Below are positions 2,312 to 48,717 of a stretch of DNA of 64,000 bases, in pieces. The stretch is from Clostridia bacterium. GTDB taxonomy: Bacteria; Bacillota; Clostridia; TANB77; CAG-508. Position 1 is the first letter of the stretch. Every line of letters starts with the position of its first letter. Below the pieces are notes generated by a model that had not been told where the DNA came from, ran no database searches, and worked only from the letters and a program-made list of their open reading frames with translations. The position numbers and the translations under genes were made by a program. Where the stretch lies: positions 135,628 to 199,627 of the forward strand of contig JAFXVF010000015.1 in NCBI GenBank assembly GCA_017524665.1, written 5' to 3'.

Positions 2312-3535
2312 TTACACTCCTAAAATTTTTCTTTTAGCTTCGTCAAATTCTTCTTGAGAAATTACACCATCATCTAATAATTTTTTCATTTTTGCTAATT
2401 TTTCATATGGATCTTCTGCTTGAGCTGCCGGTTGTACTGGTTGTGCTGGCTGAGCAGCTGCTGGTTGTTGTACTGGTTGTTGGAATGCTCCCATTGTTGC
2501 ACCTACGCTATTAATTCCCATTCCCATAAATCCAAGTCCTGTTCCTCCACCATTTTCTCCTGCTGCTTGGAATCCACGTGCAACTGATTGTTGCATAAAT
2601 GAATTTCCTCTTGCTCCTGATAAAGCATCTGCTTTCTTAACGTCGCTAAGAAGCTTCTTAGAATCTTCGTCATATTCTATAGCTGTTATAGCAACTTTTA
2701 CTATTTCTAATCCTCTATCAGATTTCCATTGATATCCTTGTTCTACAGCATATGATAAGCTTTGTGCAAATCCTATTTGATCTCCTTGTATTTTTGTTAT
2801 ACGATTTCCCTTGCTTGGATCGTTTGTATAATTAGAAAATGCTGCTGAAAGGCTTCCAACTACTTCATTGAATAATTGCTCTCCTGCAACGTTATCCATA
2901 TCTGCAAAATCAAATGGTCCAGATTCTGGTCTTAAGTATTCTACTGGTACGAAATTCTTTACAAATAAAATTGGATCAACAATTTTTAATGTATATGTTC
3001 CTCTTGTTACAGCTCCAACTTGTGCATTCATGTATGCATCATCCCAGTAAATTTCAGATTGTGTTCCAAATCTGTTTCCTGGTATTTCCTTTAAATTTAC
3101 ATATATTGCTGTTTGCTCTGTTGCTGGTATTCCACCAAATTTAAATCTTTCCCATGATGCTTTAAGTGAACTCATTATTCCATTTCCAGCTAAGAATGAC
3201 TGAGAATTTGGATCTGTTGAAGAATAAATAAATCCTCCTGGCTCTGTAATACATCCTGTTATAGCTCCATCTTGCATTGTAATTAAAGCTGTTCCTTCTG
3301 GTACAACTATTTTGCTTCCGTTTGAAATAACATTCTCAGATCCTTTTACGTTTGCTCCTCTTCCAGCATCAGTACTATTTTTAACTGCTTTATATATAGC
3401 AGCAGTTGCTGGTACATTTGTTTCTGGAGTCATAAACTCCTTCCATTCATCTGCTAGTGTTCCGCCTAGCGCTCCTGTAAATGCTTTAATAAATCCCATG
3501 TTAGTTTCCTCCTCTAATATTATATTTGCTTGCAT
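2312..3535 (-). CDS. SPFH/band-7-like protein (COG4260 'virion core protein'-like, YdjI-like) with C-terminal SHOCT domain
   Basis: 407 aa. The N-terminal MGFIKAFTGALGG... and overall layout resemble COG4260 SPFH-like proteins. The Q/P/A-rich linker is followed by a ...EDPYEKLAKMKKLLDDGVISQEEFDEAKRKILGV tail typical of SHOCT. Confidence 0.55.
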   Translation of the reverse strand: MQANIILEEETNMGFIKAFTGALGGTLADEWKEFMTPETNVPATAAIYKAVKNSTDAGRGANVKGSENVISNGSKIVVPEGTALITMQDGAITGCITEPGGFIYSSTDPNSQSFLAGNGIMSSLKASWERFKFGGIPATEQTAIYVNLKEIPGNRFGTQSEIYWDDAYMNAQVGAVTRGTYTLKIVDPILFVKNFVPVEYLRPESGPFDFADMDNVAGEQLFNEVVGSLSAAFSNYTNDPSKGNRITKIQGDQIGFAQSLSYAVEQGYQWKSDRGLEIVKVAITAIEYDEDSKKLLSDVKKADALSGARGNSFMQQSVARGFQAAGENGGGTGLGFMGMGINSVGATMGAFQQPVQQPAAAQPAQPVQPAAQAEDPYEKLAKMKKLLDDGVISQEEFDEAKRKILGV

Positions 3536-3587
3536 TATATAATATTATATATTTTTTTACAATATTTTTTTAACATTTTATAAAAAA

Positions 3588-3620
3588 GAAACGTTTGGGA
3601 CGATTCCAAACGTTTCAAAA
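3588..3620. terminator. bidirectional intrinsic terminator hairpin (gaaacgtttggg-acgatt-ccaaacgtttc)
   Basis: 11-12 bp perfect stem with A/T-rich flanks. The same palindrome recurs at 10048-10078. Confidence 0.6.
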
Positions 3621-7168: not shown

Positions 7169-7194
7169 TTAAATCATTCCTTTCTCTTTTTTTC

Positions 7195-7401
7195 ATGTGT
7201 TCTAAAATAATAAATCTATATCTTACCACTGTTACCGCTCCCGGGAGAGTCTATTTTTTAAATACTCCCCTCTTCCCACTGGCGCTGTAGCAGTACTTCG
7301 TACTTAACAGCGCTCAGCGGTCCCCCCGAGCGGGTCGCCTTAAAAAATAGAAGCTCTCCCTCGCGCTAGTAACTACTTAAATTTATTATTTTAGAACACA
7401 T
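7195..7401. repeat. GC-rich palindromic insert (core 7216-7380) bounded by perfect 21-bp AT-rich inverted repeats (7195-7215 / 7381-7401), located in the ileS 5' leader
   Basis: The inverted repeat atgtgttctaaaataataaat / atttattattttagaacacat is perfect. The 165-nt core is about 55% GC in a 28% GC background. The core holds nested dyads: gctcccgggagagtctattttttaa vs ttaaaaaatagaagctctccctcgc; gcgctgt...acagcgc; agtac-ttc-gtact. Confidence 0.6.
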
Positions 7402-7640
7402 ACAAAAAATCCATTCCATCCTATAACTTAGGACGAAATGGATTAATAATTCCGCGGTACCACCTAATTTAGAAAAGCCTTATTGCTTTTCTCTCTTAAT
7501 TTATCTTTAACGCAAGATTTCAGCGACTTGTCCTACTATTAGTTCAAACAAGCAACTCCTAGGTGATGGCAAATTGTTTTATTCTACCGAACTTTCACCT
7601 TACATCGGCTCTCTAAAGACATATTTTCAATTTGTCGTAT
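7400..7640 (-). promoter_or_regulatory. T-box riboswitch leader of ileS
   Basis: The minus strand reads AATTAGGTGGTACCGCGG (plus 7453-7470), matching the T-box consensus AAUUAGGGUGGUACCGCG. Downstream on that strand is a terminator hairpin TCCATTTCGTCCTA/TAGGATGGAATGGA followed by TTTTTTG (plus about 7402-7445). An upstream AGAGAG (GA-motif-like) element and a candidate ATC specifier are also present. Confidence 0.8.
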
Positions 7641-7741
7641 CCTATTCAAAGTTTTTTAATTGTGTAGAATTATATCATGCAAATCTTAATAATGCAATAT
7701 CTTTATAAAAATTTGTTGTCTTTTTGTGTGAAATGTTTTCT

Positions 7742-13558: not shown

Positions 13559-14674
13559 TTACATTTCTAAATCCGGCTTTAATGAGACTAATGGACAAAT
13601 TGCATTATTTGCTATTAGAATTATTTTTCCCATCCAGCCAGAATCTCCTCCACTAACTCCAATTATGTAGCCTTTTGCCCCACAGCTTGGGGAACATAGC
13701 CAAAAGCCATTATAGTCTGATATATAATAAAAGTTGTTTAATATTTCATCTGGTTTGATTATATTAGCATCTGTGTCATAGCCATATCCATTTATAGCTA
13801 CACTACTTGAAGAAGGGCTTACAGCATATCCATAATTATTATCATTAAATGGATACATACATTCTAACTTGGTTCTATTTGAATTCAAATTTTCTGAATT
13901 TGTTTCGTCTGTTAAGCCATAATGTGTATTATAACTGTCTATATACATTTCTACACTTGCTGCGCCAATTACATAATTAATTCTATCAGATAGATTAGGG
14001 TTCACATTATTTTTTAAATTTTCCCATTTTTTTGTATCGGAAAGCCAAATCGCTACCTTCATATTTAAATTATCTGTTGAAGGTGCTAGCGTTTTTTCTT
14101 CACCAATTAATTTTTCTTTTGCATATAGTAGTGGATTTAGCTCTCTAATTTTTGAAGAAGCTAAATTACCCTCAACTGTTTCGAATGTATCAGTATTCAT
14201 AAATGAATAATAATTGTTCGTGCAGTCAGCTCTTAAATATATTGTCCCTGCTCCGTCTCCATATTTATTTTCAAAGTCAATCCAAAAAAGCCTATATTGA
14301 TTAGATACAACATATGTTTTACCATCTATTGTTATATTAGTTGGTGCTCCTGTATAATCTGTTGCAATTTTACCTAAATGTTCTGCAAAATTTGACTTTG
14401 TAAGAGTTAATTCTTCACTATTTCCATCTTTATCTGTTAATTTAATATTTACAGAGATTAAATTTGAAAATGCTTTATTTAATTCTTTTTCCATTAATTC
14501 TGTATTATAACTGTATTTATCTGTAGAATCTTTTGTTTTTGCAAATAGTCCTTCTTCGTTGGCTGAAAATGATATTGCAACTCCTGCTAAAATCAGCAAA
14601 ACAATTACCGTGATTACAAGTGCAATTAAAGTAATTCCTTCATTACGGCCCATAGCCTCTTTACTTTTCTTCAT
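13559..14674 (-). CDS. secreted/surface protein with atypical prepilin-like (class III) N-terminus
   Basis: N-terminus MKKSKEAMGRNEGITLIALVITVIVLLILAGVAIS: basic leader, Gly, then a 20-residue hydrophobic helix, as in type IV pilins, but with Ala instead of Glu at +5. The protein is paralogous at its N-terminus to the 61848-62075 ORF. Confidence 0.5.
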   Translation of the reverse strand: MKKSKEAMGRNEGITLIALVITVIVLLILAGVAISFSANEEGLFAKTKDSTDKYSYNTELMEKELNKAFSNLISVNIKLTDKDGNSEELTLTKSNFAEHLGKIATDYTGAPTNITIDGKTYVVSNQYRLFWIDFENKYGDGAGTIYLRADCTNNYYSFMNTDTFETVEGNLASSKIRELNPLLYAKEKLIGEEKTLAPSTDNLNMKVAIWLSDTKKWENLKNNVNPNLSDRINYVIGAASVEMYIDSYNTHYGLTDETNSENLNSNRTKLECMYPFNDNNYGYAVSPSSSSVAINGYGYDTDANIIKPDEILNNFYYISDYNGFWLCSPSCGAKGYIIGVSGGDSGWMGKIILIANNAICPLVSLKPDLEM

Positions 14675-14699: not shown

Positions 14700-15398
14700 T
14701 TAGCTTAATTGAATTAGCTTAAAATCTGTATAATCACAACTTACAAGCTTAAATTCTATTCCTTCTATTAGTCCTTCTTTTGCTTCTTTGTGTGATGGTC
14801 CATGTAAATGACCATAAATACACTTTTTTACATTATACTGTTTCATTAAACTTATAAAATTGCATTCTTCATCATCCATTGTATTAAATGGTGGGTAATG
14901 CATACACACTATTATTTCTTTTTTCGTTCCATATTTTGCTATCCCATCTTCTAAAGAAAGCTTTAGCCTATTTCTTTCTCGCTTCAAAATTCTTTTTCCA
15001 TCTTCTAAATCTAAACTTGTCCATCCTCTTGTTCCACATATAATGTGGCCTTCATATTCATAACTGCTGTTATATATAAAATCTATATCTTTATAGTTGT
15101 TCTCCTGCAAATATCTCCTCATTGATGTAATAGTAGTCCACCAGTAGTCATGGTTTCCTTTTAATAGCAATTTTTTTCCAGGTAATTCATTTAAGTAATC
15201 AAAATCGTAGTTGGTGTCCTTTAAATACATAGCCCATGAAAAATCTCCTGGCAATAATACTAAATCATTTGGCTTTACTTTACTAATCCAATCTTCTTTT
15301 ATCTTTTCAGCATGTCCTTCCCAATTTGCACCAAATATATCCATTGGCTTATTTTCGCCAAATGATAAGTGCAAATCAGCGATTGCGTATATACTCAA
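14700..15398 (-). CDS. metallophosphoesterase
   Basis: Motifs IADLH, LPGDF, GNHDYW and HGHLH indicate a calcineurin-like phosphoesterase. TTG start with GGAGG 8 nt upstream. Confidence 0.7.
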   Translation of the reverse strand: MSIYAIADLHLSFGENKPMDIFGANWEGHAEKIKEDWISKVKPNDLVLLPGDFSWAMYLKDTNYDFDYLNELPGKKLLLKGNHDYWWTTITSMRRYLQENNYKDIDFIYNSSYEYEGHIICGTRGWTSLDLEDGKRILKRERNRLKLSLEDGIAKYGTKKEIIVCMHYPPFNTMDDEECNFISLMKQYNVKKCIYGHLHGPSHKEAKEGLIEGIEFKLVSCDYTDFKLIQLS

Positions 15399-15449
15399 TT
15401 AATTCGCCTCCATTTTTTTCGTAATTACATAATGAAATTTAAATCGTCC

Positions 15450-15569
15450 TTAGGTAATATATTATTTATTTTTTGCTCCTTGTTGTCGCTTACGCTCCAT
15501 TCGCCTAGGGTCATTTCCACTCGGGGAGCTTCCCTACGCGTCGCTTAAAATAAATAATATATTACCTAA
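15450..15569. repeat. GC-rich core (15473-15546) bounded by perfect 23-bp AT-rich inverted repeats (15450-15472 / 15547-15569)
   Basis: The arms ttaggtaatatattatttatttt / aaaataaataatatattacctaa are perfect. The core ...cgcttacgctccattcgcctagggtcatttccactcggggagcttccctacgcgtcgc... is GC-rich and internally dyadic. The architecture is the same as the 7195-7401 element. Confidence 0.55.
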
Positions 15570-15591
15570 TTTGATTCAAATGCTTTATCCT

Positions 15592-16581
15592 TTAAATCTT
15601 TAAATTAGGCACTGCATTTAAGTACATGTTTGATGTATTTCCTTCTAAATAATTGTAATATGCTGTAGATGCTATCATAGCAGCATTGTCTGTGCATAAT
15701 ACTGGCTCTGGATAGTAAACTTTTAGGTTTTCTTCTTGGCCAAATTTTAAGAATTGTTCTCTTATATAGCTATTAGCAGATACTCCCCCTGCTAATGCTA
15801 TTGTTTTAATTCCAAGCTGATTTGCAGCTCTTTTAGTATTTTCTATTAGTACTTCAGTTACTGTTTTTTCAAAGCTTGCACATAAGTCGGCTTTATTTAT
15901 GTCTGGGTTTTTATGGTGCATATTTATAATTGCTGTTTTTATTCCACTAAAACTAAAATCCAAATTCTCAAAATGAGTTTTAGGAAGTGCAATATTTGGA
16001 GTTCCTTCTTTTGCAAGTTTATCTACTTTAGGTCCTCCTGGATAGCCTAATCCGACAACTCTTGCAACTTTATCAAATGCTTCTCCAATTGCATCATCTC
16101 TTGTTTTTCCCAATATCTCAAATTCGGTATAGTTTTTTATATGTATTAAATGTGTGTGTCCACCTGAAATTACTAAACATAAAAATGGTGGTTTTAAATC
16201 TTCATGACATATGTAATTTGCTGCAATATGCCCTTGAATATGGTTTGCTCCAATTAGTGGCTTGTTTAACGCATAGCTTAATCCTTTTGCATATGAAACT
16301 CCAACTAATAGTGCTCCAACTAATCCAGGTCCATATGTACAAGCAATTACGTCAATATCTTGAAGTGTTACATTTGCTCGTTTTAATGCTTCTTTTGTTA
16401 CACCATTTATTGCTTCTATGTGATATCTAGATGCAATTTCAGGTACAACTCCACCATATGTCTCATGGATTTTTATTTGTGATTCTATAACATTAGATAA
16501 AACTTCTCTGCCGTTTTTTACAACAGCTACAGAAGTTTCATCACAACTTGATTCGATTCCTAATACTAATATATCTTTCAT
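15592..16581 (-). CDS. tsaD: tRNA N6-adenosine threonylcarbamoyltransferase
   Basis: 329 aa. [13 protein letters not shown] and a conserved His/Asp metal site typical of Kae1/TsaD. Confidence 0.9.
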
Positions 16582-48631: not shown

Positions 48632-48717
48632 TGAGACTAAGATAAATTTGGGGACGTGTCTAAAAATTACCAATTGTGGTAATTTTTAGACACGTCCCCA
48701 AATTTATCTTAGTCTCA
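48632..48717. repeat. 41-bp perfect inverted repeat (hairpin, 4-nt loop attg) between convergent genes
   Basis: tgagactaagataaatttggggacgtgtctaaaaattacca / tggtaatttttagacacgtccccaaatttatcttagtctca. No mismatches over 41 bp. Confidence 0.8.

Follow-up and report, generated by a model that had tools for sequence, protein, structure and literature searches.

In the 64,000-nt stretch of DNA from a Clostridia bacterium that was analysed here (the window), a 120-base element at 15450-15569, named E2, is on balance best explained as one member of a group of small mobile elements of uncultured gut-type Clostridia that are non-coding and non-autonomous. A long AT-rich hairpin displays a conserved GC-rich core in its loop, and copies of this core make up a family that occurs at unrelated loci in distantly related Clostridia and in either orientation to the host genes. 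The family is mobile and its arms are not conserved; at one locus, the spacer between gap and pgk, a close relative lacks both the arms and the core. Since a second locus carries the core between unrelated arms, within a 197-nt insertion, E2 is assigned to a mobile family without conserved terminal repeats.

Architecture and setting of E2

The features of E2 and its neighbouring genes in the window are as follows:
15440..15445 with 15573..15578, no strand: possible outer 6-bp stem extension of E2, a weak predicted pairing
15450..15472, no strand: E2 left arm, AT-rich (2 of 23 bases G or C), half of a perfect 23-bp inverted repeat, TTAGGTAATATATTATTTATTTT
15473..15546, no strand: E2 GC-rich core, the 74 nt between the arms
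15473..15483, plus strand: conserved 5' block of the core, TTGCTCCTTGT, identical in the L157, L158 and L159 copies
15484..15498, plus strand: variable middle of the core, in place of which L157 has a longer segment containing a hairpin with a 12-13-bp stem
15499..15544, plus strand: conserved 3' block of the core, ATTCGCYTWGGGTCATTTCCACTCGGGGAGCTTCCCTRCGCGTCGC, with 3 differences from the L157 copy over ~46 nt
15547..15569, no strand: E2 right arm, AAAATAAATAATATATTACCTAA, the exact reverse complement of 15450-15472
16581..15592, minus strand: tsaD, the host gene upstream of E2 on the transcribed strand
15398..14700, minus strand: metallophosphoesterase (MPE) gene, the host gene downstream of E2

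E2 lies inside the 193-nt spacer between tsaD and the MPE gene, upstream of the MPE ribosome-binding site. The original prediction had described perfect 23-bp AT-rich arms around a 74-nt GC-rich core between these two genes; its coordinates are exact, and both genes, identified through Pfam domains found on orthologues, are confirmed and lie on the minus strand. The core has a G+C content of ~57%, while the window around it is at ~30%. Sixty first-order Markov simulations of the window were searched for perfect inverted repeats with a spacer of 40-300 nt: the longest per simulation had a mean length of 11.9 nt and a maximum of 16 nt, whereas the real window holds perfect repeats of 23 nt (E2) and 21 nt (a second element, E1, 7195-7401). 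The predicted outer stem is separated from the arms by a small internal loop and includes one G-U pair on the minus strand. Both E2 and E1 contain stops throughout all six reading frames. Independent assemblies contain the E2 sequence too (three Logan contigs, one ENA contig and a protein record of an NCBI MAG annotated as 'Clostridia bacterium'), so it is no assembly artefact. The locus that encodes the MPE strain variant P0241 (L156) is 99.99% identical to the window locus at the DNA level, i.e. from the same strain, and therefore provides no within-species polymorphism.

Folding analysis indicated that the 141-nt region with E2 folds far better than its shuffles (z of -8.4 and -7.0), with energies of -48.6 kcal/mol on the minus (transcribed) strand and -44.9 kcal/mol on the plus strand. 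The 74-nt core alone folds no better than shuffles, either as RNA (z of 0.0 and -1.4) or as DNA (z of +0.8 and -0.2). All of the structure of E2 is thus contributed by the arms, and it is the sequence of the core, not a fold, that is conserved.

Comparison with known RNAs and signals yielded no class for this structure. No Rfam covariance model matched E2 or E1 at the gathering thresholds, and at E<=10 the sole match of E2 was a plant microRNA model on the AT stem (E=5). ARAGORN called no tRNA in E2. A consensus scan of 15250-15750 found no terminator-like site on either strand, and the same test does call the control hairpin at 62713-62735. Promoter-like matches at E2 numbered 3 against 1.9 expected from shuffled sequence, with those overlapping E2 being weak (9/12). 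An intrinsic terminator was rejected, as the G+C-rich stem and direct T-run on the transcribed strand are absent. A retron ncRNA (msr-msd) was likewise rejected: no reverse transcriptase is adjacent, the neighbours being tsaD and the MPE gene here and gap and pgk at the second locus. Features supporting an integron attC site, a self-cleaving ribozyme or a captured tRNA or rRNA fragment are absent as well. Judged from the sequence, E2 is best read as being co-transcribed within the tsaD-MPE operon as a large stem-loop with neither a terminator nor a recognisable promoter.

The orthologous spacers of three relatives (L007, L006 and L004), whose MPE proteins are 73-79% identical to that of the window, were compared, and E2 is missing from all three. 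The spacer measures 14 nt in L007, 84 nt in L006, where it contains a different small GC hairpin, and 178 nt in L004, where it includes a clear homologue of E1. Because the spacer differs in every relative, E2 is interpreted as an insertion into a repeatedly hit spacer. The empty orthologous sites, together with the lack of a terminator call, agree with the expectation that E2 is an insertion and not a native terminator, and the presence/absence comparison proposed for related genomes gave absence in 3/3. On the other side of the MPE gene, between it and the trigger-factor gene, a 371-aa ORF on the minus strand (13559-14674) has a pilin-like hydrophobic N-terminus and no Pfam match. L004 and L006 lack this ORF at the corresponding place, and L007 has a different 467-aa ORF there.

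A second E2 locus with filled and empty sites

A 24-nt probe from the E2 core matched one JGI contig, L157, in which the copy is located in the gap-pgk spacer and the remainder of the 12-kb locus has no match to the window. E2 is oriented sense to its host genes at this locus and antisense in the window. The arms of the L157 copy (TTCTATATTTAATT(A)TC and GAAATTAAATATAGAA, with an outer pair AGTCAGCC and GGCTGACT) are unrelated to the window arms, while both conserved core blocks are shared. Two earlier proposals, that the arms are not conserved terminal repeats and that the GC-rich core is the conserved part, are thereby upheld. The hosts of the two copies are distant, with PGK proteins 71.6% identical and third codon positions 59% identical; such similar cores in distant hosts imply that the core is either strongly conserved or recently transferred.

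Comparison of the gap-pgk spacers, across relatives graded by the identity of their PGK homologues, revealed both a filled and an empty state of the site. The spacer is 271 nt long in L157, L158 and L159, where the element is present (PGK of L158 and L159 96% identical to that of L157), and 74 nt long in L160 and L161 (PGK 94% identical to that of L157), where the site is empty. The two states, which concern the gap-pgk locus of L157 and not the window locus, differ by a single 197-nt block that comprises both sets of arms and the core together and is placed directly after the T-run of the gap terminator and before the pgk ribosome-binding site. The empty site contains no palindrome, and the inserted arms mirror neither of the sequences next to them. 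A TA duplication would fit the junctions, but is weak evidence, being often expected by chance in AT-rich DNA. Between L157 and L158, one decayed arm differs at five clustered bases (GCACACAAAC versus GTCCCAAAAC), a change that has the look of templating and not of independent point mutations. The inner arm of L157 also matches the spacer from the pgk ribosome-binding site to the ATG over 10 nt, a match that was rejected, being within the estimated chance expectation.

A search of ~212 kb of related low-GC DNA gave no further E2 copies, leaving two independent loci; one copy was found in ~84 kb of the source species. Arm-only copies of either arm set, from the window or from L157, are absent from the 212 kb.

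E1 and other palindromic elements

The window contains a second element, E1, which had been predicted to share the architecture of E2 and does, being one of four copies of a dispersed family. Its features and copies are as follows:
7187..7409, no strand: E1, a separate family of hairpin elements with E2-like architecture
7235-7367: conserved unit of E1 in the window, 133 nt, CCGCTCCCGGG...CCCTCGCGCT
7658..7426, minus strand: ileS T-box leader
~19630-19948 of L148: E1 copy (L148b) of the species that the window comes from, lying between rnr and a small ORF
HD-hexapeptide-transferase spacer of L057: E1 copy in a Clostridiaceae MAG
tsaD-MPE spacer of L004: E1 copy, probably in the species of L057

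The E1 HMM detected four full copies at four loci in two species, together with one solo end. A genome-collection scan with the two E1 terminal blocks returned L057 as the only real copy among the matches listed, the others being chance matches in high-GC genomes, and a metagenome scan with the E1 5' block and T-run gave 0 matches. In contrast to the E2 core, the E1 unit forms a strong hairpin on its own (z about -6.4). The outer arms, which in the window form a perfect 21-bp repeat and pair over 32 nt at 91%, differ in each copy. Between the arms and the conserved unit lie linkers of 10-19 unpaired nt, and no direct target duplication is visible.

In the window, E1 is positioned between the ileS T-box leader and the ileS start, the IleRS identity being taken from the same-strain locus. 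Since it falls between the T-box terminator and the ileS ribosome-binding site, the leader of an essential gene carries a strong hairpin. This hairpin, of ~-97 kcal/mol, has no obvious termination signal, and it is 17 kcal/mol more stable on the minus (transcribed) strand than on the plus strand. Part of the outer repeat is the U-tract of the T-box terminator, whose mirror image is an A-run beside the ileS ribosome-binding site.

Host sequence is mirrored in the L057 copy, where one 24-nt arm is the 3' coding end of the HD-domain gene (its last 8 codons) and the other arm is the mirror of this sequence with one mismatch. The HD-domain C-terminus (..FLDNVHHLKK*) is conserved in orthologues that do not have the element, and the mirror is absent from the orthologous HD loci of L148, L151, L153 and L154. 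The mirroring of host sequence across the element is thus genuine. The suggestion that arms are host-derived or made locally thus holds for this one E1 copy; it does not hold at the gap-pgk locus, the only testable E2 site, where the arms belong to the 197-nt insert.

The outermost arms of L148b (GCACAAAAAAAGAAGATG...) are similar to the bidirectional terminator that L151 natively has at this site, a likeness that fits insertion into an existing terminator palindrome; the inner loop of this copy contains a nested insert of ~98 nt. In the E1 inner repeat (GGGAGAGTCTATTTTTTAA, core, TTAAAAAATAGA..), the terminator-like 3' half and the T-run are core-proximal, which is the polarity expected from mirroring of the upstream flank and the opposite of that expected from loop insertion. 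An ordinary-looking bidirectional terminator between the HD and hexapeptide-transferase genes of the window's species (L148 10463-10499) has ~28 nt identical to the E1 5' end and is either a captured terminator or a solo E1 remnant. A 13-nt arm segment common to the window E1 and L148b at first suggested arm carry-over but is weak evidence, since the window has AT-rich matches of the same length in other places.

The best local alignments of the E1 and E2 cores were equalled or beaten by 152/500 and 96/500 shuffles, and neither of the E1 and E2 HMMs detects the other family in the 212 kb of related DNA. The GC-rich themes that the two cores had been thought to share are accordingly at chance level, and E1 and E2, as far as their sequences tell, share an architecture but no demonstrable ancestry and are separate families. 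The same theme had been seen in a terminator at 62.7 kb; the hairpin there (62713-62735) is, with its T-run, a canonical intrinsic terminator and has no specific relation to the cores. It lies in a segment (59800-62800) with ~43% G+C, compared with ~30% elsewhere, and with plus-strand genes including one for alpha-amylase (59860-61755); this segment was probably acquired horizontally.

Other palindromes were observed in the window and in related contigs. A 41-bp perfect palindrome with a 4-nt loop lies just past an ORF end at 48632-48717 of the window, and shares the motif GGGGACG(T/C)GTCTAAAA with a palindrome with 55-bp arms at L153 2760-2870, into which the HD-gene reading frame runs. The two may represent a third palindromic element family. 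Between the iPGM and TIM genes, L151 carries a 60-bp perfect GC-rich inverted repeat with a 29-nt AT-rich loop (3446-3601), the inverse of the E2 layout, and the GGGGACAGGTC palindrome of L154 (527-585) is related to it. At 199-439 of L148, a 240-nt GC-rich stretch lies in the spacer that separates the start of rpsB from the gene called next (594-1487). Several Logan contigs (k=31; L001-L003, L005, L149 and L150) from different samples stop at the same base in or beside hairpins, the repeats being shorter than k; coverage loss across strong hairpins or hidden strain polymorphism may account for these contig ends.

Mode of movement, alternatives and relation to known elements

We propose that E2 reached the tsaD-MPE spacer by insertion, and that a trans-acting enzyme would recognise the conserved core and not the arms. 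The whole hairpin would move as a unit, at the window locus too. The arms could be kept perfectly complementary while drifting in sequence through hairpin-templated copying, that is, intramolecular template switching comparable to quasipalindrome correction. Such copying might occasionally run into the flank and mirror host sequence, as in the L057 copy of E1. The 24-nt mirror in L057 and the clustered 5-nt change between L157 and L158 are the observations that point to templated arm copying. As for an enzyme or carrier, a Pfam scan of seven window ORFs (six in 57-64 kb and that at 13559-14674) found no transposase family, blastn against plasmids gave no match, and scans of viral sequences gave no match or chance matches only.

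The main alternative, which we regard as possible though not probable, is that mobility is confined to the GC-rich core, which would insert into loops of pre-existing hairpins, either native bidirectional terminators or other palindromes. The arms would then be the stem of the target, and composites could move again to build a nested 'onion'. The native terminators of the window have AT-rich inverted repeats of 16-24 nt, an arm-like length (pairs I4, I6, I8, I11 and I12), and these genomes contain many long palindromes with no core. The terminator-like outermost arms and the nested insert of L148b are in keeping with this model, as is the extra hairpin within the L157 core. Against it, the empty L160/L161 site has no palindrome, so the stem there was not a native target; arm-only copies are missing from the 212 kb; a 23-bp stem with just 2 G-C pairs is unlike the terminators seen here; and the T-run of the E1 inner repeat is core-proximal, the reverse of what loop insertion predicts.

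It is less plausible, and in our judgement improbable, that the arms were made on the spot through inverted duplication of the local flank when the core inserted, for example by fold-back priming, as first proposed for these elements. The L057 arm derived from the HD gene 3' end (..DNVHHLKK*), whose mirror is lacking from orthologous loci, is what this process would produce, and so is the A-run by which the window E1 mirrors the U-tract of the ileS T-box terminator, although the A/T-run part of that mirror could be chance. At the only filled/empty pair of the E2 family, however, the arms lie within the insert and mirror neither flank, and the 10-19-nt unpaired linkers of the E1 copies are not predicted by simple snap-back priming.

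A vertically inherited, native cis-acting RNA of the tsaD-MPE transcript, acting as an RNase III site, an mRNA stabiliser or an attenuator, is very unlikely. E2 is situated within a co-directional gene pair and would be transcribed, a perfect 23-bp duplex is a plausible RNase III substrate, and the transcribed strand folds slightly better than the other (-48.6 versus -44.9 kcal/mol). Nevertheless, E2 is missing from the same spacer in three relatives, its core recurs at a different locus in the opposite orientation in a distant genome, and it shows no T-run or terminator call, no Rfam family and no significant structure of the core. Unlikelier still is an inverton, in which a site-specific recombinase acting at the 23-bp inverted repeats would flip the 74 nt that they enclose: Clostridial phase-variable switches have this layout, with inverted repeats on both sides of a short segment in a 5' untranslated spacer, and the core occurs in both orientations to host genes across the two loci, but each locus has one orientation in 8/8 assemblies (five for the window locus, three for the L157 locus), Logan contigs pass unbranched from flank through proximal arm to core, promoter-like matches are weak (9/12) and no commoner than in shuffled sequence, no terminator is present, and 74 nt is unusually short for an invertible segment.

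E2 was also compared with known classes of small repeats. In MITEs such as Correia/NEMIS of Neisseria and RUP of Streptococcus pneumoniae, the terminal repeats are conserved within the family and match those of a parent IS. E2 resembles them in being small (100-250 bp), non-coding, bounded by inverted repeats, intergenic, variably present between relatives and co-transcribed as a hairpin; the one testable site of the E2 family would be compatible with a short A/T target duplication, which AT-rich DNA often offers by chance. Like MITEs, these elements occupy non-orthologous loci (tsaD-MPE and gap-pgk for E2, four loci for E1), and the gap-pgk site of the E2 family has filled and empty alleles (271 versus 74 nt). 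Unlike MITEs, E2 has terminal repeats that are unrelated between copies and conserves instead an asymmetric core in its interior; few copies were observed (two loci), and a parent IS was not seen.

REP and REPIN sequences, which are mobilised by RAYT proteins, are intergenic hairpin repeats, often near gene ends or terminators, that are presumed to be mobile as single strands in folded form; a REP is a short conserved palindrome, imperfect, that occurs in hundreds of copies (PMC3116915). In contrast, the E2 core is neither palindromic nor structured, and the ~84 kb of the source species hold one copy. E2 therefore qualifies as a small non-autonomous intergenic hairpin repeat that belongs neither to the MITEs, for want of conserved repeats, nor to the REPs, for want of a palindromic core. 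Its general category is that of the stem-loop sequence (SLS) families described by Petrillo and colleagues, repeated non-coding stem-loops of 50-300 bp that include those of low-GC Firmicutes and are defined by a conserved stem sequence (PMC2267715). E2 differs from them in that the stem varies and the loop content is conserved. Literature searches returned general categories only (SLS families and REPINs), among which the E1 and E2 families are not described.

Quasipalindrome correction is a mutational process that acts over a few nucleotides by intramolecular template switching. It would explain the perfect arms, the clustered templated changes and the flank mirroring in L057, whereas an extension of 15-25 nt and a link to mobile elements are not established for it. 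Some known insertions target hairpins: IS1397 and ISKpn1 insert into REP loops, and class C group II introns insert just after terminator hairpins. The elements described here are similarly found at or just after terminator hairpins and T-runs, with some nested in loops; unlike these systems, E2 encodes no protein and has no intron or ribozyme signature.

We suggest, as a doubtful extension of these results, that the elements represent an undescribed class of mobile elements in uncultured Clostridia. Members would be recognised through an unstructured GC-rich core in the loop of a palindrome, and the stem would correct itself, grow outward, mirror host flank, even coding sequence, and nest into hairpins and terminators, by a mechanism distinct from those of DDE-type MITEs and REP/RAYT systems. 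If the favoured reading of these elements is right, bacterial hairpin repeats can be defined by loop content instead of terminal repeats, and repeat finders keyed on conserved inverted repeats would miss families of this kind. The organisms concerned are known only from metagenomes, and the hairpin elements break short-read assemblies at predictable points. The host coding sequence mirrored in the L057 copy of E1 offers a concrete lead to palindrome extension in vivo. Because the elements lie within operons or leaders of essential genes (tsaD-MPE, the ileS T-box leader and gap-pgk), they may reshape mRNA processing in these bacteria.
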